Part shown: positions 8,894 to 29,899 of the stretch, in pieces | How positions within the stretch are numbered: the first letter of the stretch is position 1 | How the letters are laid out: the number at the start of each line of letters is the position of its first letter | NCBI GenBank assembly: GCA_964370145.1 | Contig: CAYJIE010000001.1 | Span: forward strand, 24,705 to 88,704 | Source: an uncultured Oscillospiraceae bacterium | Lineage (GTDB): Bacteria > Bacillota > Clostridia > Oscillospirales > Feifaniaceae | Length of the DNA: 64,000 bases | Reading direction: 5' to 3' | The notes under the pieces: model-generated | Database searches by the model: none | What the model was told of the DNA's origin: nothing | Seen by the model: the letters and a program-made list of their open reading frames with translations, nothing else | Translations under genes and position numbers: made by a program

Positions 8894-9283
8894 ATGAGAA
8901 GTAATCAAAAATTTTTCGTATGTAAGCATTGTAAGAACATCATCGGTGTGATTGAAAACGCAGGCGTACCCCTATCGTGTTGCAATGAAAAAATGAGCGA
9001 GCTCGTGCCAAACACTGTTGAGGCGAGCCAAGAGAAACACTTGCCTCATGTAGCATATGATGAGAGTACAAAAACTCTTGAAGTTGCAGTGGGCAGCACG
9101 CATCATCCAATGGAAGATGCGCACAACATCTCATTTGTTTATGTAGAAACAGATTGCGGCGGACAGCGCAAGTCTCTAGCAGTAGGGCAAGCGCCGATTG
9201 TGAAATTCTGTTTTTGCGAGGACAAACCAATCGCAGTGTATGCATACTGCAATCTACACGGACTATGGAAGACAGATATTTAA
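8894..9283 (+). CDS. dfx: desulfoferrodoxin (2Fe superoxide reductase)
   Basis: 129 aa. The N-terminal desulforedoxin-like centre is CKHC...SCC. Centre II ligands are EKHLPH, THHP and YCNLHG. Confidence 0.9.
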   Translation: MRSNQKFFVCKHCKNIIGVIENAGVPLSCCNEKMSELVPNTVEASQEKHLPHVAYDESTKTLEVAVGSTHHPMEDAHNISFVYVETDCGGQRKSLAVGQAPIVKFCFCEDKPIAVYAYCNLHGLWKTDI

Positions 9284-10279: not shown

Positions 10280-10303
10280 CACGCCATGCGTGTTAATATA
10301 GAT
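10280..10303 (+). promoter_or_regulatory. conserved 24-nt motif with an inverted repeat, copy 1: CACGCCATGCGTGTTAATATAGAT
   Basis: Matches 12822-12845 at 23 of 24 positions. It contains the palindrome CACGC-CAT-GCGTG followed by an extended -10-like TGTTAATAT. It sits 46 nt upstream of the 10349 start. Confidence 0.5.
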
Positions 10304-10348: not shown

Positions 10349-12721
10349 ATGAAAAAAATACTCGTACTTATCCTCGTACTAGCAATGTTTGCACTTAATG
10401 CAGCACCATTTGCACAAGCTGCTTATATCGTGCAAAGCGGAGATGTTCTCTGGAGAATTGCTCAAAACAATGGCACAACATGGCAAGAGCTTGCTGATTA
10501 TAATGAGCTTGAAAATCCAAACTTAATTTACACAGGTCAAATCCTTGAAATTCCAGGTGATGTGACACCAGAACCAACACCAGAACCAACAGTTTCTGTT
10601 GAAGAATTCGAAGTTGAATATGAGATGTTTGGAACAACATCAGCAGGAGTTGCAAAAAATGACACATTCCTATGGTCTGGTGTGACAGAAGACGGCATCA
10701 TCACAGAGCTTGAATTTGATGTATGGCGCAATATGGGAACAGCTGATGGCTACTCAAAGAAAGACATCTATGGTTATGAGATGAATATCTCTGACGTTGA
10801 AATCGTTGAAACAGAAGACGGCACACTTGATCTTGTGAATATCACTGTTTACAGTGGTGGACTTCCTGGTCTTTCACAATATGGATATGGTGCATCATGC
10901 GAAGACATCACAGTTGACACAAAATTCGGTGATTTGACATTCTTTAATGACTTTAGCGGCGCAGCTGTTGAGGACGAAGAAAAGGTTCTTCTTGCGTACA
11001 GCTTACTAGCTGCTGAAGTTGGTGTTGACGAGCTTACAATGGAAACACCACTTGTTGAATTCCTAGATGACTATGGCGTATATGCAAATGGCGAAATCAC
11101 AACAGGTGAGAATCGCATCTCATTTGACGGTGCACGTGGCGGCAGAAGCTATGGCGAGCAACTTGATGCAGTTGTGGATTATATCCTTGCAGAAGGCATG
11201 ACACAAGAAGAAGTATATGAATTCTTCAAAGGCGGAAATCCAGTTGGGACTCCTGACGCAGTTGCAGGCGTTACAATTTCATTCGTAGGCGACTGGCAAA
11301 GAATGGTATACATTGCCATCCACGGTGAGCTATTCAATGGCGTTCTTTCAACATCTGAGAGAGATGAAGGTACAAGATATGAAGTTGTAACACAAGGCTA
11401 CGCAGGCGAGATTGAGACATATGTAACAATCGACGCTAATGGCGATGTTGTTTCAATTGAAGTAAGAGATGCTAATGAGACAGCAGGAATCGGTGCTGTT
11501 CTTACAGAAGACGATTCAGCATTTATCCAAGCACTTGTTGCAGGTGCTGACGATGTGACAGCGGTTGACGGCGTTGCTGGCGCGACAGTTACATCAAACG
11601 CACTTAAAGAGGCAGTTGTATATGCTCAAGAGGCATTTGCAGCTGACCCATTAGAGGCTGTTGAAGTTTCTGTTGAAGAATTTGAAGTTGAATATGAGAT
11701 GTTTGGAACAACATCAGCAGGAGTTGCAAAAAATGACACATTCCTATGGTCTGGTGTGACAGAAGACGGCATCATCACAGAGCTTGAATTTGATGTATGG
11801 CGCAATATGGGAACAGCTGATGGCTACTCAAAGAAAGACATCTATGGTTATGAGATGAATATCTCTGACGTTGAAATCGTTGAAACAGAAGACGGCACAC
11901 TTGATCTTGTGAATATCACTGTTTACAGTGGTGGACTTCCTGGTCTTTCACAATATGGATATGGTGCATCATGCGAAGACATCACAGTTGACACAAAATT
12001 CGGTGATTTGACATTCTTTAATGACTTTAGCGGCGCAGCTGTTGAGGACGAAGAAAAGGTTCTTCTTGCGTACAGCTTACTAGCTGCTGAAGTTGGTGTT
12101 GACGAGCTTACAATGGAAACACCACTTGTTGAATTCCTAGATGACTATGGCGTATATGCAAATGGCGAAATCACAACAGGTGAGAATCGCATCTCATTTG
12201 ACGGTGCACGTGGCGGCAGAAGCTATGGCGAGCAACTTGATGCAGTTGTGGATTATATCCTTGCAGAAGGCATGACACAAGAAGAAGTATATGAATTCTT
12301 CAAAGGCGGAAATCCAGTTGGGACTCCTGACGCAGTTGCAGGCGTTACAATTTCATTCGTAGGCGACTGGCAAAGAATGGTATACATTGCCATCCACGGT
12401 GAGCTATTCAATGGCGTTCTTTCAACATCTGAGAGAGATGAAGGTACAAGATATGAAGTTGTAACACAAGGCTACGCAGGCGAGATTGAGACATATGTAA
12501 CAATCGACGCTAATGGCGATGTTGTTTCAATTGAAGTAAGAGATGCTAATGAGACAGCAGGAATCGGTGCTGTTCTTACAGAAGACGATTCAGCATTTAT
12601 CCAAGCACTTATTGCAGGTGCTGACGATGTGACAGCAGTTGACGGCGTTGCTGGCGCGACAGTTACATCAAATGCGCTTAAAGAAGCAGTTGTATATGCT
12701 CAAGAGGCATTTGCAGAATAA
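10349..12721 (+). CDS. secreted LysM-domain protein carrying two tandem copies of a ~358-aa module, each ending in an FMN-binding (FMN_bind-like) domain
   Basis: 790 aa. It has a signal peptide (MKKILVLILVLAMFALNAAPFAQA), a LysM domain (YIVQSGDVLWRIAQNNGTTWQELADYNEL...GQILEIPG) and a PEPTPEPT linker. Two near-identical modules follow, each ending ...DGVAGATVTSNALKEAV, which resembles the NqrC/RnfG-type flavinylation motif. Confidence 0.8.
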   Translation: MKKILVLILVLAMFALNAAPFAQAAYIVQSGDVLWRIAQNNGTTWQELADYNELENPNLIYTGQILEIPGDVTPEPTPEPTVSVEEFEVEYEMFGTTSAGVAKNDTFLWSGVTEDGIITELEFDVWRNMGTADGYSKKDIYGYEMNISDVEIVETEDGTLDLVNITVYSGGLPGLSQYGYGASCEDITVDTKFGDLTFFNDFSGAAVEDEEKVLLAYSLLAAEVGVDELTMETPLVEFLDDYGVYANGEITTGENRISFDGARGGRSYGEQLDAVVDYILAEGMTQEEVYEFFKGGNPVGTPDAVAGVTISFVGDWQRMVYIAIHGELFNGVLSTSERDEGTRYEVVTQGYAGEIETYVTIDANGDVVSIEVRDANETAGIGAVLTEDDSAFIQALVAGADDVTAVDGVAGATVTSNALKEAVVYAQEAFAADPLEAVEVSVEEFEVEYEMFGTTSAGVAKNDTFLWSGVTEDGIITELEFDVWRNMGTADGYSKKDIYGYEMNISDVEIVETEDGTLDLVNITVYSGGLPGLSQYGYGASCEDITVDTKFGDLTFFNDFSGAAVEDEEKVLLAYSLLAAEVGVDELTMETPLVEFLDDYGVYANGEITTGENRISFDGARGGRSYGEQLDAVVDYILAEGMTQEEVYEFFKGGNPVGTPDAVAGVTISFVGDWQRMVYIAIHGELFNGVLSTSERDEGTRYEVVTQGYAGEIETYVTIDANGDVVSIEVRDANETAGIGAVLTEDDSAFIQALIAGADDVTAVDGVAGATVTSNALKEAVVYAQEAFAE
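10592..11665 (+). repeat. tandem direct repeat, unit 1 (1,074 bp, in frame, inside the CDS)
   Basis: Aligns base for base with 11666-12716. By eye I find only 6 substitutions. Confidence 0.9.
11666..12716 (+). repeat. tandem direct repeat, unit 2
   Basis: Offset exactly 1,074 nt from unit 1. Identity ends at the divergent C-terminus (unit 1 ...GCAGCTGACCCA, unit 2 ...GCAGAATAA). Confidence 0.9.
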
Positions 12722-12737
12722 TTTAACTTAATATTTG

Positions 12738-12776
12738 TGGCGCTAAAGCTTTTAACAGCTTTAGCGCCATTTTTTT
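12738..12776 (+). terminator. intrinsic terminator
   Basis: 13-bp stem TGGCGCTAAAGCT / AGCTTTAGCGCCA with a 6-nt loop, followed by a run of 7 T. Confidence 0.8.
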
Positions 12777-12821
12777 GTATAAAAAAAAGGAAATTGTCAA
12801 AAAATATAACAGTGGATATTT

Positions 12822-12845
12822 CACGCCATGCGTGTTGATATAGAT
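12822..12845 (+). promoter_or_regulatory. conserved 24-nt motif with an inverted repeat, copy 2: CACGCCATGCGTGTTGATATAGAT
   Basis: Same motif as 10280-10303, 36 nt upstream of the paralogous gene's start at 12881. Confidence 0.5.
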
Positions 12846-12880
12846 GCACACACAAACAATGGGGATATGAAAGGATTTAT

Positions 12881-14086
12881 ATGAAAAAATTACTGATTTT
12901 ATTACTGGCAATTTCAATGCTTATGATGACTGCTTGTACAAGTGGGGACAATGAGGGTGATACTGATGGCGGAATGGACACAGGTGACAGTGGCGATAAT
13001 GGCGGCACGGATGATGGACAGGGCATGGAGGAGAGTTTTTCAGCGGAATATGAAATGAAGGGGACTACATCGAGTGGTAATCCAAAAAATGATACATTCA
13101 TATTCAATGGGACGACAATGGACGGGGTGATAACAGAGCTTGAGTTTGATATCATCAGAAATAAAGGTACTGAAGATGAATATTCAAAAAAGGATATTTA
13201 CGGGTACTCGATGAATGTCACGGATGCTGATATTGAGGCGGCTGACGAGGGCTTTAACCTTGTCAACTTTTCCGCAATGGGATATTCAACGGAGTATGCC
13301 GAGGGGGCGTCAGCGCAATATCTTGTCTATGGCTCTGTTGATAATGTGACAGATGACACAGTGTTTTCTGACTTAGTTGTCGTTGACTTTATGGGTGAAG
13401 AAATTACACAGGAGCAAGCACTTGTTGCATATACGCCCGTTGCAAAAGAAGCTGGAATTGAGCTTACGTTAGATACGCCGATTAAAGATTTAATTGAGCA
13501 ACATGGATCATATGCAAATGGCACATTCGTTGAGGGCGAGAGGCGTATTTCTTTCGAGGGAATTGCCGGTGGGCGAAGCTATGGCGAGCAAATTGATGCA
13601 ATTAAACAATATATTCTAGACAATAAGATGACACTGGAAGAAGTGTATGAGATGTTCAAGACTGTCAATCAAGCTGATGAGCCAATTGAAGAGCGTGACA
13701 CGGTTGCCGGTGCGACAATCACTTTTGTCGGTGACTTCCAGCGCATGGTATATGTAGCGATGCATGGTGAACTCTTTAATGGTGTGGTCACAACCGGTGA
13801 GACTGAAAACGGGAAAGTCTACGAAGTTGTAACGCAGGGATATGGCGGTGAGATTGAGACGAATGTAACCATTGACGCTGAGGGTAAAGTAACGGCAATT
13901 GAGGTTCGTGATTCAAACGAAACAGCAGATATAGGCTCTGTCTTGACAGAGGACAATTCCGAATTTATTCAAGCTCTCATCGCAGGGCAAGACGATGTGA
14001 TGGCAGTTGAGGCGGTTGCCGGAGCAACAGTTACGTCAAACGCTTTGAAAGAGGCGGTTAAATATGCACAGGATGCGAATAAATAG
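12881..14086 (+). CDS. lipoprotein paralog carrying one copy of the same module with an FMN-binding domain
   Basis: 401 aa with a lipobox (LLAISMLMMTAC) followed by a Gly/Asp-rich linker. Blocks collinear with the repeat module include EYEM.GTTS, ITELEFD, YSKKDIYGY.MN, GGRSYGEQ.DA, FVGD.QRMVY and YEVVTQGY.GEIET. It has two AGAT motifs: DTVAGATITF and AVAGATVTSNALKEAV. Confidence 0.8.
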   Translation: MKKLLILLLAISMLMMTACTSGDNEGDTDGGMDTGDSGDNGGTDDGQGMEESFSAEYEMKGTTSSGNPKNDTFIFNGTTMDGVITELEFDIIRNKGTEDEYSKKDIYGYSMNVTDADIEAADEGFNLVNFSAMGYSTEYAEGASAQYLVYGSVDNVTDDTVFSDLVVVDFMGEEITQEQALVAYTPVAKEAGIELTLDTPIKDLIEQHGSYANGTFVEGERRISFEGIAGGRSYGEQIDAIKQYILDNKMTLEEVYEMFKTVNQADEPIEERDTVAGATITFVGDFQRMVYVAMHGELFNGVVTTGETENGKVYEVVTQGYGGEIETNVTIDAEGKVTAIEVRDSNETADIGSVLTEDNSEFIQALIAGQDDVMAVEAVAGATVTSNALKEAVKYAQDANK

Positions 14087-14104: not shown

Positions 14105-14153
14105 CAAAAAAATCCCTGCGTTGTGCAAAGCACAATGCAGGGATTTGTGTTTG
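14105..14153. terminator. bidirectional terminator between convergent genes
   Basis: 17-bp stem AAATCCCTGCGTTGTGC / GCACAATGCAGGGATTT with a 3-nt loop. An A run lies upstream and a T-rich tract downstream. Confidence 0.7.
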
Positions 14154-14194: not shown

Positions 14195-16726
14195 TTAATA
14201 GACTACAATTTGATTTTTGCCACTTCTTTTTGCAGTGTATAATGCTTGGTCTGCGCGCTCAAGCAGTTCTGTATAGCTGACGAGCTCGCCCTCCGTGAAA
14301 GCGATGCCGATGCTACTTGAAATGGTGACTTTAATGCCATCTTTTTCATATGTTCGCTCAAGTTTTTCTGCAACCTCATTGGCTTTTTCAACGACTTTGT
14401 CACGGGAATAGTTGTTTTTCATAAGCACACAAAATTCATCTCCACCAATGCGCCCAACAATATCATTTGTCCTAAATGAGCTCTTAATGGCATCGGACAC
14501 ATCCACAAGTACTTGATCACCATATAGATGCCCGAAGTTGTCATTTATAGCTTTGAAATTATCCACATCTATGACAAAGAGTGCCTGCACTTTTTTTTGG
14601 GCCTCAAGTTTCCACAGATATGAGGAGATGATTTGCTCTGTCGCCGACTTATTATACAATGTGGTCATTTTGTCATGTTCTGCCTCGAAACGAAGTGCAA
14701 TTTCTTGACGTTTTTGCGAGTCGATATCTTCAACATAGGCAAAGGCGCAGATGTCGCCACTCACATGGTGCTCATACAGATTTGCGTTGCCGTTTAGCCA
14801 ACGGTATTCACCGTTTTGAGCAATACGTCTATATTGCGAAGAGAACTGCCTCGAGCCGCTTTCATAGGCATTCACAAGGCTTTGGACGGAAGTGATGGTC
14901 CTGAAAGAGTCCTTGTCGTCTGGGTGTACAAGTTTTTCGGTAAAGAGGCCAATCAAATCAGAATATTTCATGTTCGGGTCAAAATTAAAGAGTGTGCGCC
15001 ACTGCTCATGTCCGCTAATTAACTTATTTTTAGTCAAATTAACTTCATATGCCAAGACGGATTTATTAGCAAGCATTGTCTCATAAAATCTTCGATGTTC
15101 TTTTGTTTTTTGCTCAGCCTTGCGCTCCTCATCGATATCTCTTAAGTATATACGAGCCATATAGTCGCCCATATCATCTTTGATGACGGCAACAGAAATT
15201 TCAGTCCACAGTGGATTTCGATCATCGGAAGAGGTCTTAAAAGGAATTGAAATCGCTGACAGCAAATATCCGTCCTCATATTTTTTAATAAGCGCTGCTG
15301 GAGAAATTAGTTCAATGACATTTTTCTGAAATTCTTCAGCAGTATGTGTTCTTGGCATAATTGCTGAGAACATTTCATATGTCAACGGGGAAGAAGCCTT
15401 TATCCCAAGGTCAAGATTTTCACGAAGAAAACTGATTTCGTTTTTAGATAAATTAGCCTCGCAGAAAAGCTCCCTATCGCGTGAAGTAGCCCTTGCAAAT
15501 TCACTTTCTCTTTGCATTTTGCTTCTCTCACCGATATCGCGACAAACTCCGATTGCCTTAAATGGGCTGCCGTCCTCTGAATAAACAGTGGTTAGTGTAA
15601 GTTCAAAGCTATGTTTAACTCCGTTTTCACCGAGCCCCATAACAAAGCATTTTGCTGACGGAGCACCCTTGTCAACCTTGTCAAAAAAGTCATTATACGC
15701 TTGAAGAGAAGAATCAAGCACATTGCCCATGATAACGTCATGCTCTGCTTGGACCTTAGCATAAGCGGAGTGGTCATTACTGCTAACACTTGGCGTATAA
15801 ACAGTCTTCTCCTTTGAGCTGACAATATATTCAAACATTGTAATTTGTGTTAATGACATTGCAATTTCATAGCGCATTTCGCTAAGTTTAATTGACTGCT
15901 CCTGCGCCTTTTGCCTTGAAATGTCAACAACAATTGCCTGTAAAATTTTGTGACCATTGTCACCAACAAAAACACTGCCCTTTTCAAGCACCCAGAGGGG
16001 CTTGTTTTCTCTGGTTACCAACCTGTATTCAATAGAATAGGCTTTACCCTGTTCAATGCGATCTTGCGCCTCGGCGTTAACACGTTCCCAGTCAGCGGGA
16101 TAAATAAAATTTGAGGTTTTCTTACCAATGATTAAATCTCTTTCGTATGGATTGTATTGGAGCATGGAGAGAAAGCCCTCGCTCGCATATTTAATCGTGT
16201 ATCCCTCATCAATATCGCATTGCAAAATTCCACCATGAATATTATTTGTGAGTGATTCAAGTTCTCTTAGCTTTGTGTCAAGAAAGCCCGAGAAAGCCAC
16301 CTGGGAATCACCTTTATTTGTGGTCAAAACAAGCGGCTTTGACAAGTGCATTTGCACAAACTTCATCTGTGCATCATTCAGAAGGACAAAGGCGCTGACC
16401 TTAACGGTTGGATTATCTGCACATTTTTTGTCAGAATCAAGCAAATCAAATTCTCCGAGAACACTAAATGTCATCGGAGTGATTTCTTTTATTATTAAAT
16501 TAATCCTGTCAAGCGTGTAACTAATTTTCCACATTTCAAAATACTTTTTAAAAGCAGCTAATGTGTCGGCAGCATTTTCAGTTGTGCGTTCATTTCCACT
16601 GCCGATCATGGAAAAATTACCCGTAATACTATCTCTGATAAAATCAATGTCTTTGTTAACAAAGAAGTTGTTGAGAAACTGCGTTGCAAATTGCTCAACA
16701 TTTTTATGGTTATTGATATTTTTCAT
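14195..16726 (-). CDS. multi-PAS diguanylate cyclase (GGDEF domain)
   Basis: 843 aa. The C-terminal GGDEF domain has an intact active site (RIGGDEFCVLM) and an RxxD I-site (RTND) 5 residues upstream. Several PAS-like segments precede it, and the first ~130 aa form a domain of unclear type. Confidence 0.85.
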   Translation of the reverse strand: MKNINNHKNVEQFATQFLNNFFVNKDIDFIRDSITGNFSMIGSGNERTTENAADTLAAFKKYFEMWKISYTLDRINLIIKEITPMTFSVLGEFDLLDSDKKCADNPTVKVSAFVLLNDAQMKFVQMHLSKPLVLTTNKGDSQVAFSGFLDTKLRELESLTNNIHGGILQCDIDEGYTIKYASEGFLSMLQYNPYERDLIIGKKTSNFIYPADWERVNAEAQDRIEQGKAYSIEYRLVTRENKPLWVLEKGSVFVGDNGHKILQAIVVDISRQKAQEQSIKLSEMRYEIAMSLTQITMFEYIVSSKEKTVYTPSVSSNDHSAYAKVQAEHDVIMGNVLDSSLQAYNDFFDKVDKGAPSAKCFVMGLGENGVKHSFELTLTTVYSEDGSPFKAIGVCRDIGERSKMQRESEFARATSRDRELFCEANLSKNEISFLRENLDLGIKASSPLTYEMFSAIMPRTHTAEEFQKNVIELISPAALIKKYEDGYLLSAISIPFKTSSDDRNPLWTEISVAVIKDDMGDYMARIYLRDIDEERKAEQKTKEHRRFYETMLANKSVLAYEVNLTKNKLISGHEQWRTLFNFDPNMKYSDLIGLFTEKLVHPDDKDSFRTITSVQSLVNAYESGSRQFSSQYRRIAQNGEYRWLNGNANLYEHHVSGDICAFAYVEDIDSQKRQEIALRFEAEHDKMTTLYNKSATEQIISSYLWKLEAQKKVQALFVIDVDNFKAINDNFGHLYGDQVLVDVSDAIKSSFRTNDIVGRIGGDEFCVLMKNNYSRDKVVEKANEVAEKLERTYEKDGIKVTISSSIGIAFTEGELVSYTELLERADQALYTAKRSGKNQIVVY

Positions 16727-17562: not shown

Positions 17563-18993
17563 CTAGTCGAGCTTTTGCAGCTCATCTGATAGAATTTTAT
17601 TTGTTACAAGTGGGTTTGCCTTACTCTTAGTTTTCGCCATGACTTGACCGACGAGAGCAGAAAATGCCGCATGTTTGCCTTTTTTATAATCTTGAACGGT
17701 TTTTTCGTTTGAACTGAGCACCTCGATGACAACGACTCTGATTTTTTCCTCATCATTGATTTGTGCAAGGTCATGCTCTTTTACATAGCGTTCGGGGTCA
17801 ATGTCATTGTCCCAAAGATTCTTTACAAGCTTTTTGGCAACACTTGATGTTATATATTGTGCGGCGCTCATATCGGCGATTACAGCCAAAGTTTCAGGGC
17901 TGATTTTTATATCAACATTGTCGGTGCTAATTAGCCTAAACACCTCGCCTGTCAATAAATTAGCCGCAGTTTTAGGGCTCTTTGAAATTTTTGCACAAAT
18001 ATCAAAATAGTCAGATATCGCCTTGTCGGAGATTATCATCTCTGCAACGGCATTTTCAAGGCCATATGCGTTGATATACTCTTCCTTGCGGCGATCCGGC
18101 ATTGCTTCAAGTGTGTCGCTTATCTGTGCGATTTTCTCAACAGAAAGTTCAATTAATGGCAAGTCGGGGTCGGGGAAATAGCGGTAGTCATTGGCGTTTT
18201 CTTTAGAGCGCATTGAAAATGTCTTGTTTTGATTTGCATCATAACGTCTGGTTTCTTGCACAATTTCACGCCCCTCAAGTGTCGCTTCGACTTGACGATT
18301 ATACTCATATTCAATCGCTTTTGCGATAAATGCGAAAGAGTTGAGATTTTTCATCTCTGTTCTGGTGCCAAAAACATCACTGCCATTTTTTCGAATAGAC
18401 AAATTGACATCACAACGCAGACTTCCTTCCTCCATTTTGCAGTCAGAAACCCCTGTGAACATTATTATTGCACGAAGCTTCCTTAGATATGCAACAGCTT
18501 CTTCGGCAGAGCGCATGTCGGGCTCTGAAACGATTTCAATGAGTGGAACTCCACAGCGATTGCAGTCAATCATTGTGCCATGGTCATCATCGTGAAGGAG
18601 TTTGCCTGCGTCCTCCTCGATGTGAATTCTTGTGATACCCACACGTTTTGCGCCATTTGAGGTTTCGATATCGACATATCCTCCCTCGCAGAGCGGCAGA
18701 TCAAATTGCGAGATTTGATATGCTTTTGGCAGGTCGGGATAGAAGTAGTTTTTTCTGTCTTGCTTAGACTTGTTTGCAATGTGACAATTTGTTGCAAGCC
18801 CTGCTTTAACAGCATATTCCACGACTTTCTCATTTAACACGGGAAGAGTTCCGGGCATCCCCATACAAATCGGGCAACACTGCGTATTAGGCTCCGCGCC
18901 GAACTCCGTTTTACAGTCACAAAAAATCTTAGAATTTGTTTTTAGCTCAACATGGACTTCAAGACCGATGACCATTTCATAGTTTTTAATCAT
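17563..18993 (-). CDS. gatB: Asp-tRNA(Asn)/Glu-tRNA(Gln) amidotransferase subunit B
   Basis: 476 aa with N-terminal YEMVIGLEVHVELKTNSKIFC and a C-terminal YqeY-like tail. The start overlaps the gatA stop by 4 nt. Confidence 0.95.
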   Translation of the reverse strand: MIKNYEMVIGLEVHVELKTNSKIFCDCKTEFGAEPNTQCCPICMGMPGTLPVLNEKVVEYAVKAGLATNCHIANKSKQDRKNYFYPDLPKAYQISQFDLPLCEGGYVDIETSNGAKRVGITRIHIEEDAGKLLHDDDHGTMIDCNRCGVPLIEIVSEPDMRSAEEAVAYLRKLRAIIMFTGVSDCKMEEGSLRCDVNLSIRKNGSDVFGTRTEMKNLNSFAFIAKAIEYEYNRQVEATLEGREIVQETRRYDANQNKTFSMRSKENANDYRYFPDPDLPLIELSVEKIAQISDTLEAMPDRRKEEYINAYGLENAVAEMIISDKAISDYFDICAKISKSPKTAANLLTGEVFRLISTDNVDIKISPETLAVIADMSAAQYITSSVAKKLVKNLWDNDIDPERYVKEHDLAQINDEEKIRVVVIEVLSSNEKTVQDYKKGKHAAFSALVGQVMAKTKSKANPLVTNKILSDELQKLD

Positions 18994-20438
18994 AGTGCAG
19001 TCCCTCCGATTTCCTGTTCAAGCGCATGTCCGACTCCATAGAGGAGTTGCTCGGACAGGGGCTTTCCGATTAGCTGTACGCCGATTGGTAGCTTTTCCTT
19101 CGTCATAGCGCAAGGCATGGCGAGTGAGGGCAGCCCTGCTATATTAATGGGCACGGTGTAGATGTCACCCATATACATCTCGACAGAGCTCATCGTCTTT
19201 TCGCCCAGTTTATAGGCGACGGTAGGCGCGACTGGTGAGAGAATGAAGTCGCATTTATCATGCGCTTTTTTGTAGTCCTCCATTATCAGTGTTCGCACTT
19301 GCAAAGCCTTTTTGTAATATGCGTCGTAGTAGCCGGAGGAAAGTGCAAATGTACCGAGCATAATCCTCCTTTGCACCTCTTTGCCAAAGCCCTCTGAACG
19401 TGAATTTATATAAACTTCGTCTAAAGTGCCTGCTTTTTCACTGCGATGACCATAGCGAATGCCGTCGAAGCGAGCGAGATTGCTCGACGCTTCAGCAGAA
19501 GATATGATGTAATATGCGGATAGGGCATGCTCTAAATTCGGCAGTTTAATCTCCTCGATTTTAGCACCCATGCTCTCGAATTTTTTCGCAGTTGCCATAA
19601 CGGCATCTTTGACTTCAGGGGAAATTCCATCTGCAAAAAATTCACTGGGAAGTCCGACAACAAGGCCCTTGACATCTCTGCCGATTTGCGACATATAGTT
19701 TGGGCGAATACCCTTATTTGATGTAGCATCAAGTTTGTCATGGCTCGCAATAGCTGACAGCACCAGTGCATTGTCGAGCACTGTTCTTGTCAGTGGACCG
19801 ACTTGATCGAGGGACGATGCGAACGCAACCACGCCATATCGTGACACGGTGCCATATGTCGGCTTCATTCCGACTACGCCGCAAAATGCTGCAGGCTGGC
19901 GAATTGAACCGCCGGTATCAGAGCCCAGCGAAAAAGCCGCCTCGTATGCCGCCACACTGGCAGCAGAGCCCCCTGACGAGCCTCCAGGGACACGCTCTAT
20001 GTCATGTGGATTTTTCGTTGGCTTAAAATGTGAATTTTCACAGGAAGAGCCCATGGCGAATTCGTCCATGTTAAGCTTTCCAAGCGGAATATATCCGCTG
20101 TCATCGAGATTTTTCGCAACAGTTGCACTGTAATTTGGGACGAAGTTTTCAAGCATTTTTGAAGCGCAAGTGGTTGAAATCCCACGAGTACAAATATTGT
20201 CTTTAAGCGCACCGCTTATGCCAAGGAGAAGCGCCTCATCTCCATTTGCAATACGTTTGTCTGCCTCGCTTGCACGCTTAAGTGCAAGTTCGCTGGTCAC
20301 ATTTAAATAAGCTCCGATGTCGCCATCTTTCTTTGCAATATTATCAAGATATGCCTGTGTGAGTTCGACGGAGGAAACTTCTTTATTCTTAAGCATTTTT
20401 CTTTGCTCGCTAATTGAAAATTTAGTTAAATCTTTCAT
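18990..20438 (-). CDS. gatA: Asp-tRNA(Asn)/Glu-tRNA(Gln) amidotransferase subunit A
   Basis: 482 aa with the amidase signature GGSSGGSAASVAA and the motif GSDTGGSIRQPA. Confidence 0.95.
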   Translation of the reverse strand: MKDLTKFSISEQRKMLKNKEVSSVELTQAYLDNIAKKDGDIGAYLNVTSELALKRASEADKRIANGDEALLLGISGALKDNICTRGISTTCASKMLENFVPNYSATVAKNLDDSGYIPLGKLNMDEFAMGSSCENSHFKPTKNPHDIERVPGGSSGGSAASVAAYEAAFSLGSDTGGSIRQPAAFCGVVGMKPTYGTVSRYGVVAFASSLDQVGPLTRTVLDNALVLSAIASHDKLDATSNKGIRPNYMSQIGRDVKGLVVGLPSEFFADGISPEVKDAVMATAKKFESMGAKIEEIKLPNLEHALSAYYIISSAEASSNLARFDGIRYGHRSEKAGTLDEVYINSRSEGFGKEVQRRIMLGTFALSSGYYDAYYKKALQVRTLIMEDYKKAHDKCDFILSPVAPTVAYKLGEKTMSSVEMYMGDIYTVPINIAGLPSLAMPCAMTKEKLPIGVQLIGKPLSEQLLYGVGHALEQEIGGTAL

Positions 20439-20568: not shown

Positions 20569-22662
20569 CTATTCAAATGACTTCGGAACATAAATATATT
20601 CCTCTGTCTTAGTTTTGGCATTGCTAAGGAGCTCTGCACGGTCACTCTTGTCTGTTGCAATGTCTTCTCTTAACACATTTGACATTGGGAGCACATGTGC
20701 AGTGATTGGAACACCCTCAGTGTCAACTTTTGAGAGGGCGTCAGCGAAGTCCACAATTGCCAACATATCCTCCTCCATGACAGTGATGTCTTTTTCTGAG
20801 AATCTCAGATGCGATAGCTCTGCAATACGCATAACATCAATTCTCTTATGCTCTTTTTGCTTAAGGAATCGCTCTCTCTCCTCGATGTCTGTGAAAGCGC
20901 CGACAAGTGCTAGCTCATGAAGTTGAGAGATGTCAACCTCTGTTGGAGCTCCTGTCATCGGGCAGGAGGCATCTTTATTTTTGGGGAATGCGATTACATC
21001 ACGCAGACTGTCAGCGCCGAGCAGTAGCATAACAAGCCTATCTAGCCCAAAGGCAAAACCTCCATGCGGCGGTGTGCCATAGCTAAACGCGCCGATCATA
21101 AATCCAAAACGCTCTGCGATTTCCTCATCACTAAAACCGAGCATTTCAAACATCTTATGCTGGAGCTCACTATCATTTATACGAATTGAACCGCTTCCAA
21201 GTTCCGTTCCATTGAGCACAACATCATATGAAAGGGCGCGCGCCTTGTCGGGCTCGGTGCTCATCTTCTCGATATCTTCGGGATGCGGCTTTGTGAATGG
21301 GTGATGCTTTGCAACATATCGCTTGTGGTCGTCGTCCCACTCAAACATCGGGAAATCATTGACGATTACAAATTTATAGTCGTCCTTTTTGCGCAAGCCA
21401 AGCATATCGCCGACCGCAAGGCGAAGTCCTGCAAGAACCTTGCAAACTATATCATATTTATCTGCGGAGAACAAAATGAAATCGCCCTTTTTAGCGCCAA
21501 CACGCTTGAGGAGCGCTTTCATCTCCCTATCCGTGAAATATTTTGTTAAGATGGAGTAGATTTCGCCGTCGGGACGATAGGAAATCCAAGCCATGCCCTT
21601 TGCGCCGAGTGCCTGCGCCTTATTCGTCAAATCCTCAATTTCCGTACGTGTGAAATCGGATTTGCAGTCAACATTGATAGCACGCACGACTCCTCCGCTA
21701 GTGACGGCATTTTTGAAAACGGAAAATGAGCATTTTGCGGCAATATCTGTTACATCGACGATGGGCAAGTCAAATCGCAAATCAGGTTTGTCACAACCAT
21801 ATGTCTCCATCGCCTCATGATAGCTCATGCGTGGAAATGGCTTTTTGAAATCAAGCCCCATCACTTCAAAGAGCACATGTTTAAACAGCTTTTCAAGATG
21901 TGTCAACACGTCCTCTTCAGTACAAAATGACATCTCCATATCCACTTGAGTGAACTCGGGTTGTCGGTCTGCTCGAAGATCTTCGTCCCTAAAGCAGCGT
22001 GCAACTTGATAGTATTTATCTACACCGCCCACCATGAGGAGTTGCTTGAAGATTTGCGGACTTTGTGGCAGCGCATAGAATTCGCCCGCATGAACACGGC
22101 TGGGAACAAGATAGTCTCTTGCGCCTTCGGGAGTTGATTTGCAGAGGATTGGAGTTTCAACAGAGATGAAACCATCGCTGTCGAGATAGTTTTCTATGGC
22201 TCTTTGCACTCTGTGTCGCAGTCTTAAATTGCCTAACATCTCAGGGCGTCGTATGTCTAAATAACGGTATTTAAGTCGCAGGTCTTCACGGACAGCATTG
22301 CCCTCCTCAAGGGGGAATGGCAGAGTTTTTGCCACTGACTGTACGATGAGATTTTTTGCTCGAAGCTCTATCGTTCCAGTTGGTATATTAGCATTATATG
22401 TGTCCTCGCTGCGAATTTCAATTACTCCTTGCACGGTGATTACAGATTGGATTTTCAAAGCATCGGCAAGTGCAAAGTCATGCGAATTCATATCAGAGCT
22501 GTCAAACACGACTTGAAGAACACCTTCCCTATCAAATAAGTCAACGAAAACGATGCCACCCATATCTCTTTTTGTGCGCACCCAACCGGAGACGGTAATA
22601 TTCTGTCCGACACTCTTTTCAGCAACCAAACCACAATAAACGGTTCTCATTAATTCACCCAC
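20569..22662 (-). CDS. aspS: aspartate--tRNA ligase (bacterial type) with a C-terminal GatC domain fused in frame
   Basis: 697 aa. Residues 1 to ~585 form a full AspRS (FRDEDLRADRQPEFTQVD, GGFAFGLDRLVMLL, GAD insertion). The last 92 aa, at about nt 20572-20847, align with GatC (IAELSHLRFSEKD, VDTEGVPITAHVLPMSNVLRED, YIYVPKSFE). Confidence 0.85.
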   Translation of the reverse strand: MGELMRTVYCGLVAEKSVGQNITVSGWVRTKRDMGGIVFVDLFDREGVLQVVFDSSDMNSHDFALADALKIQSVITVQGVIEIRSEDTYNANIPTGTIELRAKNLIVQSVAKTLPFPLEEGNAVREDLRLKYRYLDIRRPEMLGNLRLRHRVQRAIENYLDSDGFISVETPILCKSTPEGARDYLVPSRVHAGEFYALPQSPQIFKQLLMVGGVDKYYQVARCFRDEDLRADRQPEFTQVDMEMSFCTEEDVLTHLEKLFKHVLFEVMGLDFKKPFPRMSYHEAMETYGCDKPDLRFDLPIVDVTDIAAKCSFSVFKNAVTSGGVVRAINVDCKSDFTRTEIEDLTNKAQALGAKGMAWISYRPDGEIYSILTKYFTDREMKALLKRVGAKKGDFILFSADKYDIVCKVLAGLRLAVGDMLGLRKKDDYKFVIVNDFPMFEWDDDHKRYVAKHHPFTKPHPEDIEKMSTEPDKARALSYDVVLNGTELGSGSIRINDSELQHKMFEMLGFSDEEIAERFGFMIGAFSYGTPPHGGFAFGLDRLVMLLLGADSLRDVIAFPKNKDASCPMTGAPTEVDISQLHELALVGAFTDIEERERFLKQKEHKRIDVMRIAELSHLRFSEKDITVMEEDMLAIVDFADALSKVDTEGVPITAHVLPMSNVLREDIATDKSDRAELLSNAKTKTEEYIYVPKSFE

Positions 22663-22967: not shown

Positions 22968-23044
22968 ATTGGTAGTTATAAAAAATGGGAGCAGTGTGAC
23001 TTTTTTCACTTAGCGAAATCATTATTGAGCGGTGGGAGGTGTAT

Positions 23045-24961
23045 ATGAGCAAAGTTTTTCTATCTCAAGATGAGATATATCTATTTAACAATGGAGAATT
23101 CTTTGACAGTTATCTGCGCTTTGGCTCGCATGTAATTGAAGATGGACAGGGCGTCGAGGGCGTTCATTTTGCGTGCTGGGCACCAAATGCAAAGTCGGTA
23201 AGAGTGGTGGGTGACTTCAATTCATGGGATATAAATAAAGATATCATGGAGCGACACGAGGGCGGAGTTTTCACAACATTCATCCCATCCCTTGGCGAGG
23301 GAGAAAAATATAAATATCAGATTGAAACATATACGGGAGAGTATGTGTTTAAGAGCGACCCATATGCTTTTTGGTCAGAAGTGAGACCGCATACAGCGTC
23401 AATCGTACGAAGCCTTGAGAATAAGCATAAATGGGGCGACGCAAAATGGTATAGAGAGCAGAGGAAGTCTGCACCTCGCGAGAAAAAAATGCTTATATAC
23501 GAAGTGCATCTTTCCTCTTGGAAAGTGCATGAAAACGGCAATTGGCCGACATATAGAGAATATGCGGATATGCTAATTCCATATGTGAAAGATATGGGTT
23601 ATACACATATTGAGTTAATGCCTCTAACAGAGCATCCCTTTGACGGTTCGTGGGGATATCAAGCGACTGGCTATTACAGTGCCACAAGTCGCTATGGGAC
23701 ACCTGAAGATTTGATGTTTTTTGTAGATATGTGTCATCAAAACGGAATTGGTGTAATCATGGATTGGGTTCCAGGGCATTTTTGCAAAGACGCACATGGG
23801 CTTGGATTGTTTGACGGAACCCCTTGCTTTGAAGCTGAGGAGCATTTGCAATGGGGGACATATAAGTTTGATTTTTCCAAGAAGGAAGTTAGAAGTTTTC
23901 TAATTTCAAATGCGCTGTTTTGGATTGAGAAATTCCATTTTGACGGTTTGCGAGTGGATGGCGTGTCCTCCATGCTACATTTGGACTTTGATCGAGAGGA
24001 ATTTGAGCCCAATATATATGGGGGAAGAGAAAATCTCGAAGCAATTCAATTCTTAAAGGACTTAAATCGAATCGTTATAACAAAGCATCCTACGGCGATG
24101 ATGATTGCCGAGGAGTCCACCGATTGGCCAATGGTGACAAAGCCTGCGTTTGACGGGGGCTTGGGCTTTACTTTTAAGTGGAATATGGGTTGGATGAATG
24201 ACACCCTCAAATATATGGAGACTTGGTTTGAGGACAGGCGAAAGCACCATGATCTTGTGACTTTTTCCATGATGTATGCGTTTTCGGAGGAATTTATCCT
24301 GCCAATGTCACATGATGAGGTTGTGCATGGGAAGTGCTCGCTGGTGAATAAGATGCCGGGGGATAACTGGCAAAAGTTTGCAAATTATCGAGCAATGTAC
24401 ATGTATCAAATGGCACACCCCGGTAAAAAGCTCACATTCATGGGTTGTGAATTTGCACAGTATATCGAGTGGAAATATTACGAACCGCTTGAGTGGTTCA
24501 TGTTGGACTATCCATTGCACAGACAATTTATGCAGTTCACAAAGGAACTAAATCATCTCTATTTAAGCGAGGGTGCTCTTTGGCAGAATGAGAGCAGTTG
24601 GGATACTTTTGAGTGGCTGGACGCTGACAATAATGAGCAGGCGATTTTGTCATTTGTGCGACGTGCAAAAGGATGCGATGATTTAATTGTCGTTATAAAT
24701 TTCAGACCCGAGGCATATGATGAATTTCGTATTGGTGTTCCTTGTGAAGGGACATATGTCGAGTTGTTCAACACTGATAAGTCAGAGTATGGCGGAGCGG
24801 GATATCACAGAAATCTTGCGACACAAAGCGAAGCAAAGCTATTTCATAAATGCGAGCACTCAATAAAAATCAAGCTACCACCGCTTGGAGCGGTTGTTCT
24901 AAAAAGAGAAAAAAAGGTAAGGAAAGCGAGAGTTACAAAAAAGACTGCGTCAAAGCAGTGA
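23045..24961 (+). CDS. glgB: 1,4-alpha-glucan branching enzyme
   Basis: 638 aa from the ATG at 23045, 6 nt after GGGAGG. GH13 motifs are GVIMDWVPGHF, DGLRVDGV, IAEEST and SHDEVVHGK. Confidence 0.93.
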   Translation: MSKVFLSQDEIYLFNNGEFFDSYLRFGSHVIEDGQGVEGVHFACWAPNAKSVRVVGDFNSWDINKDIMERHEGGVFTTFIPSLGEGEKYKYQIETYTGEYVFKSDPYAFWSEVRPHTASIVRSLENKHKWGDAKWYREQRKSAPREKKMLIYEVHLSSWKVHENGNWPTYREYADMLIPYVKDMGYTHIELMPLTEHPFDGSWGYQATGYYSATSRYGTPEDLMFFVDMCHQNGIGVIMDWVPGHFCKDAHGLGLFDGTPCFEAEEHLQWGTYKFDFSKKEVRSFLISNALFWIEKFHFDGLRVDGVSSMLHLDFDREEFEPNIYGGRENLEAIQFLKDLNRIVITKHPTAMMIAEESTDWPMVTKPAFDGGLGFTFKWNMGWMNDTLKYMETWFEDRRKHHDLVTFSMMYAFSEEFILPMSHDEVVHGKCSLVNKMPGDNWQKFANYRAMYMYQMAHPGKKLTFMGCEFAQYIEWKYYEPLEWFMLDYPLHRQFMQFTKELNHLYLSEGALWQNESSWDTFEWLDADNNEQAILSFVRRAKGCDDLIVVINFRPEAYDEFRIGVPCEGTYVELFNTDKSEYGGAGYHRNLATQSEAKLFHKCEHSIKIKLPPLGAVVLKREKKVRKARVTKKTASKQ

Positions 24962-24986
24962 TTAAAGAAAGTGTAGGTAGATTGCA

Positions 24987-27455: not shown

Positions 27456-27514
27456 GCTCATATATTAATAAAGTGCTATAATCTAACCAGATAAAAATTT
27501 ATAGGAGGTAACTT

Positions 27515-28714
27515 ATGGAGCGCAATGAATGTATCGCAATGTTGCTTGCCGGCGGGCAGGGAAGTAGACTTGGTGCGATGACGCAAGATATCGCAAAACC
27601 CGGTCTATCATTTGGCGGCAAATACAGAATAATAGATTTTAGTTTATCCAATTGTACTAATTCGGGCATTGAGACAGTCGGCGTACTCACGCAATATAAA
27701 CCGTTTTTGCTTAATACATATGTTGGTATTGGTTCGGCGTGGGATCTTGACCGTGATCAAGGCGGAATGCATGTGCTTCCACCGTATATGAGTGCGAGTG
27801 GCGGCGCGTGGTACAAGGGAACTGCAAATGCGATTTATCAAAACATGGAATTTATTGATAATTACGATCCTGAATATGTGCTTATTTTATCAGGTGACCA
27901 TATATATAAAATGGATTATTCAAAGATGCTCGAAGTCCACAAGGACAATGAAGCTGATTTGACAATTGCAGTGCTTGAAGTGCCTGATGAAGAGACAAGT
28001 CGCTTTGGGATAATGACAGTTGACGACAGTGATCAAATCATAAAATTTACTGAAAAGCCAAAGAATGCAGATAGTAATCTCGCATCAATGGGTATTTATA
28101 TATTCACTTGGGATGTGCTTAAGAAAGCACTCATTGCAGATGAAGCTGATGAGGATTCTGACAATGATTTCGGTAAGAATATCATTCCAAAATTGCTAGA
28201 GCAAAAATGCAAGCTCATGGCACATCGCTTTGTTGGTTATTGGAAAGATGTCGGAACGGTTACAAGTTACTACGAGACAAATATGGAGTTGCTTGAAGTT
28301 GAAAACGGGCTTGACATTTTTGATACGAATTTTAGAATAGCTTCAAATGCGGATATATTACCGCCGCAATTTATTGGAGTGGATGCAAAAGTTGATGATA
28401 GCTTAATTAGCAATGGTTGCACCGTGCTCGGAACAGTAAAACGCTCGATTCTTGGACCGGGGGTATATGTTGCTGAGGGAGCAGAGGTGGTGGATTCAAT
28501 CTTGCTACCATACTCCAAAGTGGGAAGTTCAAGCACAGTTGTTAAGACAATTCTTGGTGAGAAGTCGAGCGTTGGCGAGAGATGCATGCTGGGTGCAAAA
28601 CGCGAAGATGAAGAGCAAGCTAAGAACAATGGAATTTGTGTTGTTGGAAACAGCTGCATTCTAAACGAGAACATGACAATTTTCGAGGGCGATGAGCTTA
28701 GAAGACATCAATAA
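27515..28714 (+). CDS. glgC: glucose-1-phosphate adenylyltransferase, catalytic subunit
   Basis: 399 aa with [14 protein letters not shown] and [15 protein letters not shown], plus a C-terminal left-handed beta-helix region. Confidence 0.95.
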
Positions 28715-29884: not shown

Positions 29885-29899
29885 TTGGAGGAAATTTTG

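Follow-up and report, generated by a model that had tools for sequence, protein, structure and literature searches.

A composite module with one FMN_bind domain and a second predicted flavinylation site in a lipoprotein and a neighbouring LysM protein

PplA, a surface lipoprotein of the extracellular electron transfer (EET) system of Listeria monocytogenes, carries two covalent FMNs attached by the ApbE-type enzyme FmnB and passes electrons to extracellular acceptors and to flavin reductases; FmnB also acts on reductases whose genes lie apart from the EET cluster (PMC9973259). Several FMN_bind domains are present in the multi-flavinylated proteins (Meheust et al. 2021; SaFMN3 and CbFMN4 of Tong et al. 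2023), which are extracytosolic and common in Gram-positives. Some of their clusters include LysM-bearing proteins and some include extra FMN_bind proteins, and a wall-spanning model has already been proposed for multi-flavinylated LysM, SLH, Rib or FIVAR proteins and for clusters encoding multiple FMN_bind proteins (Meheust et al. 2021, PMC8238504). The FMN-bind2 domain, which was found by BLAST and not by Pfam, occurs in Firmicutes, has insertions between beta1/beta2 and beta3/alpha1 and forms two-flavin units (Huang et al. 2024, mSystems; NTW96865.1, Erysipelotrichaceae bacterium). DUF2271 and DUF3570 were discovered as ApbE substrates via their conserved [S/T]GA[S/T] motifs, and rarer ApbE substrates are said to remain to be identified (PMC8238504).

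Two adjacent genes of the window, the 64 kb stretch of DNA analysed here, encode a common module of about 358 aa in three copies, in tandem in ORF A and once in ORF B, as a preliminary description had proposed. All features given below with coordinates lie on the forward strand. ORF A (10349-12721, 790 aa) begins with a signal peptide ending AQA-A, followed by a LysM domain (10424-10555, aa 26-69; PF01476, E 1.9e-14, 53.7 bits against a cut-off of 20.9), a Pro-rich Pro/Thr/Glu linker and two tandem 358-aa modules. Module 1, comprising an N-terminal part (N-part) and FMN_bind, spans 10595-11668 (aa 83-440; 1074-nt tandem period), and module 2 spans 11669-12718 (aa 441-790; best Pfam FMN_bind stretch at aa 708-784). 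ORF B (12881-14086, 401 aa) starts with MKKLLILLLAISMLMMTAC, whose lipobox Cys19 is followed by an acidic Gly/Asp linker of about 30 aa (aa 20-49) and one module. The lipoprotein and signal peptide plus LysM assignments of that description thus hold, and an extracytosolic location is predicted for both proteins, with ORF B lipid-anchored and ORF A secreted and peptidoglycan-bound through its LysM. The host of the pair is a spore-forming Firmicute. As in PplA, with which ORF B is compared here by published description, a Firmicute surface lipoprotein combines a lipobox and flexible linker with two predicted flavin sites. However, both PplA sites are located in FMN-binding domains, whereas ORF B has one Pfam FMN_bind and an unrecognised domain of 250 aa. 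In addition, the PplA locus comprises eight EET genes with fmnB, ndh2, eetA/B and dmkA/B, to which ORF B and its relatives are unlinked.

The repeat period in ORF A is exactly 1074 nt (358 aa), and the two modules are 99% identical in DNA, with an identical core of 927 nt. The module bodies differ at 6 positions, 5 of them synonymous and one a Val to Ile change, and the junction codon differs too. Such a pattern of differences is expected of real selected duplicates and not of assembly noise. Between modules of ORF A and ORF B, identity is 60.5% in amino acids and 63% in nucleotides; ORF A is best explained as a diverged paralogue of the ORF B module, duplicated recently in tandem. Among the relatives of the N-part, searched in 1.84e9 representatives, ORF A is the only two-module protein, and it is a singleton at 90% identity, present on one NCBI contig; the LysM tandem version is unique. 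Both this singleton status and the 927-nt identical stretch would be expected if a repeat had been mis-expanded during assembly and the true gene had one module. We regard such an artefact as highly improbable, as the usual behaviour of assemblers is to collapse a repeat and not to expand it, the two copies are distinguished by the body differences named above, and the module junction is exactly in frame with a linker sequence of its own.

A 24-nt element precedes both genes. Copy 1 (10280-10303, CACGCCATGCGTGTTAATATAGAT) is located 46 nt 5' of the ORF A start codon and copy 2 (12822-12845, CACGCCATGCGTGTTGATATAGAT) 36 nt 5' of that of ORF B. The copies are identical at 23 of 24 positions; the DNA around them is unrelated, and the coding DNA is just 63% identical. 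With up to 3 mismatches allowed, the element has only these two matches in 64 kb, with 0 expected from 100 shuffles. Copy 1 contains an inverted repeat, CACGC-CAT-GCGTG, abutting a -10-like box. ORF A and ORF B are apparently co-regulated. Each gene is separately terminated, as had been described, by a strong intrinsic terminator: that of ORF A (12737-12770) has a 14-bp stem that includes 7 G-C pairs and precedes TTTTTTT, and that of ORF B (14110-14146) is a bidirectional hairpin with a 17-bp stem, common to the convergent GGDEF gene.

The C-terminal end of each module matched Pfam PF04205 well over the gathering score of 22. ORF A contains two FMN_bind stretches (E 2.2e-25, 89.6 bits) and ORF B one (13838-14068, aa 320-396; E 6.6e-16, 59.2 bits); on these profile matches, all three ends are bona fide Pfam FMN_bind domains. 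The solved chains closest to the ORF B domain are 8p2b_A (CbFMN4 domain 1, E 5.8e-9), a crystallised, covalently flavinylated domain of a multi-flavin protein and the nearest solved relative, and RnfG 7zc6_G. RnfG was also retrieved by Foldseek with the whole ORF B model and is the best structural match of the C-terminal part. The NCBIfam models of RnfG and NqrC match the same segments below their own cut-offs. The C-terminal part thus has the fold and covalent-FMN site of RnfG and NqrC but falls far under the family cut-offs (73.7 vs 102 bits), and in contrast to these proteins ORF A and ORF B lack a membrane anchor helix and are not near any rnf or nqr genes. The canonical motif (motif 2) reads DGVAGATVTS in both ORF A modules, from aa 407 and aa 765, and EAVAGATVTS in ORF B, from aa 377. 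Its seven-residue part is DGVAGAT at 11567-11587 in module 1 (aa 407-413, within FMN_bind) and lies at 12641-12661 in module 2 (aa 765-771); in ORF B it is EAVAGAT at 14009-14029 (aa 377-383, within FMN_bind). Of the reading D-G/A-V-A-G-A-T-V-T-S given earlier for all modules, the G-A-T core stands, but the first residue in ORF B is Glu, not Asp.

The N-part of ORF B (13028-13780, aa 50-300) is an orphan domain of about 250 aa. Pfam gave no match on the native N-part, a PDB profile search was empty, and Foldseek of the N-part model against the PDB gave no match (best E 0.28). The earlier statement that it corresponds to no known domain therefore stands, but a second flavinylation-type motif inside it had been overlooked. 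This motif (motif 1) reads DTVAGAT in ORF B (13697-13717, aa 273-279), with Thr279 as the predicted second flavinylation site, and DAVAGVT, an Ala to Val variant of the predicted site, in ORF A module 1 (11255-11275, aa 303-309); in module 2 it lies at 12329-12349 (aa 661-667). Motif 1 agrees with the core of the ApbE motif and is followed by a helix in the model, as in FMN_bind. We aligned 56 relatives down to about 25% identity, in which G277 and T/S279 are conserved in all 56, D273 in 54, and the flanking R272 and F282 in 52 and 55, respectively; motif 1 is better conserved than motif 2. Across 205 members, motif 1 reads [ST]GAT in 64% and AGAT in 33%. Stand-alone N-part lipoproteins without any Pfam domain also keep it; two of these stand-alone versions, P0144 and P0180, are encoded by complete genes. 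No Cys or His is conserved, and the lipobox Cys is the sole Cys of ORF B, which leaves flavin as the one plausible redox cofactor. Given a second and better conserved motif in the N-part, the module is most likely a two-flavin unit, with two predicted sites in ORF B and four in ORF A.

The window motifs deviate from the strict ApbE consensus given in a review, D-x-x-[S/T]-G-A-[S/T]: all have Ala for Ser/Thr at -3, ORF B motif 2 has Glu for Asp, and ORF A motif 1 has Val for Ala, a change reported to cut flavinylation to roughly half. These deviations, together with an N-part that neither Pfam FMN_bind nor the fold search recognises, would suit a module flavinylated only at the C-terminal FMN_bind, with motif 1 either left over as a structural relic or binding a flavin or other ligand non-covalently and the N-part a spacer, docking or oligomerisation domain. 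We consider this quite unlikely in view of the conservation of motif 1, its fully canonical form in most members and its retention by stand-alone proteins; the seven-residue motif alone is also enough for ApbE according to the review. DUF2271 and DUF3570 offer a precedent for domains of unknown function in which such motifs mark real flavinylation substrates; however, they lie beside orphan apbE genes and are biochemically validated, whereas the N-part has no apbE linkage and its site is predicted from sequence.

The AF2 model of the N-part has a pLDDT of 86.4 and a pTM of 0.77; in the two-domain model of ORF B (pTM 0.58), relative domain placement is uncertain. When the insertion was deleted, 3 of 8 N-part constructs gave Pfam FMN_bind scores of 13-17 bits, under the cut-off of 22 and on the motif segment only. 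Profile-profile alignment placed ORF B 217-300 on FMN_bind motif-to-motif (P 4e-4) and, co-linear with it, ORF B 50-97 on the beta-sheet half (P 0.017); the middle 120 aa were unaligned. These alignments hint, weakly, that the N-part may be an FMN_bind domain split by an insertion of about 120 aa. It would be either such a very derived FMN_bind or a separate flavinylated fold. In the former case, the insertion would be at beta3/alpha1, the same position as in FMN-bind2. However, FMN-bind2 is a domain of about 160 aa, two of which make up a pseudo-symmetric unit, whereas the module here is asymmetric (250 aa plus a compact, Pfam-positive domain of 100 aa), with its motifs just 104 residues apart. 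The FMN-bind2 example has no InterPro entry listed, whereas the family here always scores PF04205; compared by published description, NTW96865.1 and the family look distinct but may be the same. Its two Pfam FMN_bind domains formally place ORF A in the multi-flavinylated class, but the described examples are beads-on-a-string of compact FMN_bind1 and each 358-aa repeat here combines FMN_bind with an orphan domain that has a motif of its own. An ApbE-type flavinylation motif within a domain absent from current libraries is probably new here.

The insertion in the N-part is large, alpha/beta and confidently folded (pLDDT >90), and invariant polar residues are found outside the motif (Y109, M111, N112, Q146, T199 and N263-Q264), as is an invariant stretch G230-G231-R-S-Y-x-x-Q237. 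It is possible that the module is an enzyme and not a relay. FMN_bind serves as the electron-entry site in flavinylated fumarate and urocanate reductases; it could do so here, with the N-part, its own flavin and the insertion forming a pocket for an extracellular acceptor (a small organic molecule, metal chelate or oxygen) and ORF A a wall-immobilised double dose. A closed family of one architecture, mostly found alone, is what would be expected of a self-sufficient enzyme, and O2 is reducible by reduced multi-flavin proteins (PMC10339131). We nevertheless judge this unlikely: the N-part has no likeness to any known catalytic fold, genomic context yields no candidate substrate, the invariant residues could merely line a flavin pocket, and the complete fumarate-reductase-like enzymes adjacent in several relatives better fit a donor role.

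The single-module lipoprotein forms a closed uncharacterised family of about 370-390 clusters in gut Clostridia and Erysipelotrichaceae. A signal peptide is present in all members and a lipobox in at least two thirds. In most genomes the gene stands alone among unrelated housekeeping genes, without a wall-tethered partner, and genomic context therefore gives little functional support. In four relatives, the gene immediately upstream, in the same orientation and 69-340 nt away, encodes a secreted fumarate-reductase-like flavoenzyme; at L050 two such genes follow one another, and at four further loci one lies within 2.5-6.6 kb. The FMN_bind sites of these neighbours read D-x-V-A-G-A-T, which indicates that Ala at -3 is normal in the clade. 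A scan of 40 window genes gave no ApbE, FAD exporter, NDH-2, EetA/B or quinone genes, in agreement with the preliminary description, and no ApbE, FAD exporter, NDH-2 or quinone genes recur near relatives.

A desulfoferrodoxin gene is located two genes upstream of the pair, with an rluD-type pseudouridine synthase gene between. The pair might instead act outside energy metabolism and serve a strict anaerobe in redox protection of its surface or in the handling of flavin (scavenging of O2 or oxidants at the wall, flavin storage or capture). The nearby desulfoferrodoxin gene, a neighbourhood without any respiratory gene and the reaction of reduced SaFMN3 with O2 would agree with such a role, but the intervening rluD-type gene separates desulfoferrodoxin from the pair, the desulfoferrodoxin gene has no 24-nt upstream element and the linkage is absent in relatives. 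We find this role very unlikely.

We give about an even chance to a reading in which ORF B is a membrane-anchored extracytosolic two-FMN flavoprotein, ORF A its wall-held paralogue with up to four flavins, and electrons pass from flavin to flavin. Once the proteins are exported by Sec, FMN would be placed on the motif threonines by an ApbE/FmnB-type transferase whose gene lies elsewhere, in ORF B on Thr383 of the canonical FMN_bind and on Thr279 of the preceding domain of about 250 aa. The ORF B lipoprotein would receive electrons from a donor at the membrane surface and pass them flavin to flavin and then directly to soluble or enzymatic acceptors, in some relatives probably the secreted fumarate-reductase-like enzymes. 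Alternatively, ORF B may hand electrons to ORF A, whose flavins would be held in the peptidoglycan layer by the LysM fusion, extending the reach outward. Since the lipoprotein family almost always lacks a wall-tethered partner, such a relay would be at best a lineage-specific elaboration and not the general role. The flavin relay across the wall suggested in the preliminary description is in essence the wall-spanning model published in 2021. Pfam-based counting would capture just half of the predicted flavin sites in these composite modules. The pair fits the published idea of flavin-based electron transfer across the Gram-positive wall and would add to it an undescribed domain with a predicted flavin site.

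ORF A (10349-12721, + strand) encodes a protein of 790 aa in which a signal peptide of the SPase-I type precedes LysM, a Pro/Thr/Glu linker and two 358-aa modules. ORF B (12881-14086, + strand) encodes a protein of 401 aa, which starts with a lipobox (lipoprotein signal, Cys19) and continues through an acidic linker of 30 aa into a single module. Both export signals were predicted from sequence. The LysM domain (PF01476) was located at aa 26-69 of ORF A with an E-value of 1.9e-14 and 53.7 bits against a Pfam gathering threshold of 20.9. Open reading frames, Pfam matches and the repeat structure confirmed the two-gene architecture of the preliminary description, with one module on a lipoprotein and two behind a signal peptide and LysM. 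The separate termination proposed there agreed with the strong intrinsic terminators found 3' of ORF A and ORF B alike.

In ORF A the module DNA is repeated in tandem at an interval of exactly 1074 nt, and a core of 927 nt is identical between the two copies. The repeat bodies show six differences, five synonymous and one Val to Ile. Such a pattern speaks for a genuine duplication or gene conversion that took place very recently, and not for an assembly error. Modules of ORF A and ORF B are 60.5% identical in residues and 63% in bases. Among 1.84e9 representative proteins, ORF A was the only relative found with two modules and the only one bearing LysM, and it was a singleton at 90% identity. 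Its module lies on a long branch, with ORF B as the closest relative (58%). Judged from these sequences, ORF A is a paralogue that either is old or evolves fast, and its internal duplication is recent.

The FMN_bind domain expected at the end of each module was borne out by the HMM check, in which PF04205 exceeded the Pfam gathering threshold of 22 bits in the C-terminal ~80 aa of every module. The match comprised two stretches in ORF A (89.6 bits) and aa 320-396 in ORF B (59.2 bits, profile positions 1-75 of 77). The flavinylation-type motif of this domain (motif 2) reads DGVAGAT twice in ORF A and EAVAGAT in ORF B. The closest solved chain to this C-terminal part was CbFMN4 domain 1 (8p2b, E 5.8e-9), which carries covalent flavin, has been crystallised and is part of a multi-flavin protein (PMC10339131). 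RnfG chains were second-closest by sequence, and in Foldseek the whole-protein model matched RnfG only, through the C-terminal part. The RnfG and NqrC family models matched proteins of the window only below their cut-offs. On these profile scores, ORF A and ORF B are classed as FMN_bind proteins, not as Rnf or Nqr subunits. ORF A, with its two Pfam FMN_bind domains and its export signal, falls in the multi-flavinylated class sensu Meheust 2021, which requires an export signal and two or more such domains; ORF B, with one Pfam FMN_bind domain only, lies outside this class.

The N-terminal ~250 aa of the module (N-part) had been described as matching no known domain. This stood as far as Pfam and the PDB are concerned, but a second ApbE-type motif inside the N-part (motif 1) had been overlooked. 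In the alignment of relatives, the N-part ends in R-D-x-[VI]-[SA]-G-A-T-I-x-F followed by a helix. Motif 1 is DTVAGAT in ORF B (D273-T279) and DAVAGVT in ORF A. Among 56 sequences reaching down to ~25% identity, the Gly and the acceptor Thr/Ser were conserved in all 56 and the Asp in 54. Modification of the C-terminal site alone is one of the main rival explanations; of the two sites, motif 2 is the less conserved, with Gly in 51 of the same 56 sequences. The family alignment contained no conserved Cys or His, and the sole Cys of ORF B is that of the lipobox. Since no such residue is conserved, flavin would be the only plausible redox cofactor of the module. Another main rival holds that the N-part is catalytic and the module an enzyme.

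The ApbE consensus is D-x-x-[S/T]-G-A-[S/T], and seven residues are enough for ApbE (PMC12052999). Positions -3 to 0 of motif 1 were [ST]GAT in 64% and AGAT in 33% of 205 full-length members. The G-A-T core is present in both motifs of ORF B and in motif 2 of ORF A; motif 1 of ORF A has G-V-T. In published substitutions, D to A had a minor effect and A to V cut flavinylation to ~50% (PMC12052999), and the latter bears on the G-V-T variant. All four motifs in the window carry Ala at -3, in contrast to [S/T] in the consensus, and we found no published effect of Ala at this position in the ApbE-motif literature. Ala at -3 also occurs in FMN_bind domains of reductases neighbouring relatives, whose motifs, where the C-terminal domain is present, are DAVAGAT, DIVAGAT, DGITGAT or DTVSGAT. 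The occurrence of Ala at these neighbouring reductase sites indicates that it is an ordinary variant in these clades.

Two complete relative genes, P0144 and P0180, code for lipoproteins that consist of the N-part only and have zero Pfam matches. Because they retain the motif, the N-part is, by gene structure, an autonomous motif-bearing unit. DUF2271 and DUF3570 were found through conserved [S/T]GA[S/T] motifs (PMC8238504), and on this precedent we treated the N-part as a candidate ApbE substrate. Stand-alone N-part lipoproteins with the motif, without FMN_bind and without any Pfam match lie at two loci from one metagenome sample (L078, 1255-2058, 267 aa; L079, 1070-1882, 270 aa), one of them immediately 3' of a gene for an [FeFe]-hydrogenase-like protein. 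No ApbE lay beside the stand-alone N-part genes; the neighbours of ~350 aa were an InlB-repeat protein and an [FeFe]-hydrogenase.

The order of secondary structure in the N-part is three long strands, an alpha/beta insertion of ~120 aa, a helix, the motif and a second helix, which suggests an FMN_bind domain split by the insertion. In hhalign comparisons with the family's own C-terminal part, aa 217-300 of ORF B aligned motif-to-motif (P 4e-4) and aa 50-97 aligned on the beta-sheet half (P 0.017), in co-linear order. With these weak, co-linear profile-profile signals, a split domain survives as a tentative idea only. The insertion was also considered as a degenerate third FMN_bind repeat and rejected, as its middle part gave no alignment (P 0.32). 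The native N-part (ORF B aa 50-300) did not match Pfam FMN_bind. With the insertion deleted, three of eight constructs matched, but solely at profile positions 35-67 and with 13.4-16.6 bits (threshold 22), and neither a distant subfamily nor a shuffled control matched. Structure prediction and fold search, as proposed earlier, were consistent with an unknown domain: Foldseek of the N-part-only model (pLDDT 86.4, pTM 0.77) returned no neighbour in the PDB (best E 0.28), and a PDB profile search with the N-part was empty. Inter-domain geometry in the whole-protein model was uncertain (pTM 0.58). Filing the N-part under FMN_bind was rejected on the sub-threshold Pfam scores and the lack of a fold or PDB profile match. 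The N-part is either a strongly derived FMN_bind domain or a separate fold predicted to be flavinylated.

The whole ORF B query found 371 proteins. The N-part profile gave 389 matches in 5.8e9 proteins, and a single-sequence search gave 37 clusters at 50% identity in 1.84e9 representatives. Both N-part searches returned the same family only, so that other architectures or annotated families containing the N-part were rejected. Two multi-stretch matches (P0141 and P0153) were discarded as unrelated or low-complexity repeat proteins. Nearly all members are 340-420 aa with one module, and the sole name given to them is 'FMN-binding protein'. A signal sequence was predicted at the start of all 205 members inspected. 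By these searches, the single-module lipoprotein form is a closed family. Species-representative genomes contained 71 loci of the family, from Oscillospiraceae, Christensenellales (Limiplasma, Egerieenecus and Onthenecus), Erysipelotrichaceae (Holdemania, Dielma, Traorella and Anaerorhabdus), Clostridium disporicum and C. hominis, Lachnospiraceae and Epulonipiscium.

Neighbourhoods of 63 relatives showed neither a conserved gene order nor a recurring ApbE. A conserved operon partner was sought among 759 neighbouring ORFs of the 63 loci and rejected, since only generic two-component and ABC proteins and fumarate-reductase-like enzymes were returned; cluster 1 and several representatives of the neighbour clustering were false ORFs on the antisense strand of high-GC genomes. 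The sole recurrent functional neighbour was a fumarate-reductase-like flavoenzyme that is secreted. At four loci it is encoded in the same orientation just upstream of the family gene, with gaps of 69-340 nt, and the family gene closes a co-oriented array with one or two such enzymes (arrays at L001 8004-11191, L020 65-2491, L046 1524-4801 and L050 3881-9131). At L050 two of the enzymes stand in tandem. In four further loci a fumarate-reductase-like enzyme is 2.5-6.6 kb from the family gene. Erysipelotrichaceae such as Holdemania have very large secreted flavin reductase sets (bioRxiv 10.1101/2022.12.26.521950).

Upstream of both genes of the window we found a 24-nt element, CACGCCATGCGTGTT[A/G]ATATAGAT, identical at 23 of 24 positions. 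It is located at 10280-10303, 46 nt before the start of ORF A, and at 12822-12845, 36 nt before that of ORF B. The element contains an inverted repeat, CACGC-CAT-GCGTG (5 bp), beside a -10-like box. Within 64 kb it matched at these two sites alone, where 0 matches were expected, and the flanking intergenic DNA was unrelated. The element is probably a common operator or promoter, and ORF A and ORF B, though separately transcribed, are therefore probably co-regulated. It was absent upstream of distant relatives. An Rfam scan of the window detected one tRNA only and no riboswitch or known RNA near the genes.

The remainder of the window is housekeeping: secA, spoVA, desulfoferrodoxin, rluD, PAS-GGDEF, gatCAB, a glycogen operon, spo0A and an Mrp antiporter. 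The desulfoferrodoxin (129 aa, two-domain, superoxide reductase type; 8894-9283, +) is encoded two genes upstream of the ORF A/B pair; its gene is without the 24-nt element, and its linkage to the flavoproteins is not kept in relatives. A diguanylate cyclase of 843 aa (PAS-GGDEF; 14195-16726, -) is convergent with ORF B and shares a terminator hairpin with it. An ORF of 697 aa (20569-22662, -) combines aspartyl-tRNA synthetase domains (tRNA-synt_2, GAD and anticodon OB) with GatC at the C-terminus (PF02686, aa 621-692, E 2.6e-15), and gatA and gatB (18990-20438 and 17563-18993) follow directly downstream. This is an apparent AspRS-GatC fusion with transamidosome components in one chain. The glycogen operon (23039-31351; branching enzyme, phosphorylase, GlgC, GlgD and GlgA) ends in a 1175-aa fusion of the catalytic domain of an alpha-amylase and a GH77 4-alpha-glucanotransferase (31381-34908, +). 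The Mrp-type cation/proton antiporter cluster (41243-50285, -) has four Proton_antipo_M subunits of 641, 483, 487 and 493 aa with NuoK-like, MnhB/MbhE and MnhE subunits, and a separate Na_H_Exchanger gene (39690-41003) adjoins it. Two adjoining ORFs at 57156-57947 and 57975-59303 (+; 263 and 442 aa) had no Pfam match at E 1e-5.

As the preliminary description had noted, ApbE, NDH-2, EetA/B and quinone genes are missing among the scanned genes of the 64 kb. The Listeria-type EET locus encodes its lipoprotein together with fmnB, ndh2, eetA/B and dmkA/B; ORF B, in contrast, is not so linked, and these genes were absent both from the window and from the neighbourhoods of the 63 relatives. The lipoprotein PplA of Listeria carries two FMN attached by FmnB, which acts on the unlinked reductase FrdA as well (PMC9973259). 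By analogy, ORF B may follow the same logic, with two FMN attached by an ApbE-type enzyme. We propose that an unlinked ApbE would attach FMN to both motif Thr residues of each module. The lipoprotein ORF B would take electrons at the membrane surface and pass them from one flavin to the next and on to acceptors or reductases outside the cell, and the LysM-anchored ORF A, with up to four flavins, would extend the transfer into the wall. We give this scheme as a whole an even chance of being right. A protective or flavin-handling role of ORF A and ORF B is the third main rival.

The idea of a wall relay is not new: Meheust et al. 2021 (PMC8238504) reported multi-flavinylated proteins, clusters that include LysM-bearing proteins and others in which several FMN_bind proteins occur, and covalent multi-flavinylation was shown in vitro by Tong et al. 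2023 (PMC10339131). Huang et al. 2024 described the FMN-bind2 subtype, with beta1/beta2 and beta3/alpha1 insertions and pseudo-symmetric two-flavin units (PMC11334425). Compared with that description, in which FMN-bind2 is ~160 aa and forms pseudo-symmetric pairs, the module differs in size and symmetry, with parts of 250 and 100 aa and motifs 104 aa apart, and, unlike FMN-bind2 as described, has a Pfam-positive C-terminal part; the two may nevertheless be related. An accession check of 10 NCBI-sourced family clusters did not turn up the FMN-bind2 example NTW96865.1.

Taken together, the module is a predicted composite flavoprotein with two motifs, and domain libraries recognise only half of it. 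It occurs here in lipid-anchored form and in a unique LysM tandem form, under a probable shared control element. The interpretation in the preliminary description is partly supported. It is possible, though we rather doubt it, that the N-part is an unrecognised class of ApbE-flavinylated domain which forms a compact two-flavin unit with FMN_bind, and that ORF A and ORF B make up a six-flavin, cytochrome-free conduit from membrane to peptidoglycan.

Flavin-based extracytosolic electron transfer is thought to be the route of many cytochrome-poor gut Firmicutes to extracellular acceptors and to power their large secreted reductase sets. Parts lists for it rest on Pfam FMN_bind matches, and the family is an example of a conserved domain with a predicted flavin site that such a census misses. 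Should the second site prove real, the predicted number of flavins would double in each of the ~390 clusters, which come from Oscillospiraceae, Christensenellales, Erysipelotrichaceae and some Clostridium. With one module in two anchoring formats under a seemingly common control element, the window could serve as a simple natural model in which to examine the proposed wall-spanning flavin relay.
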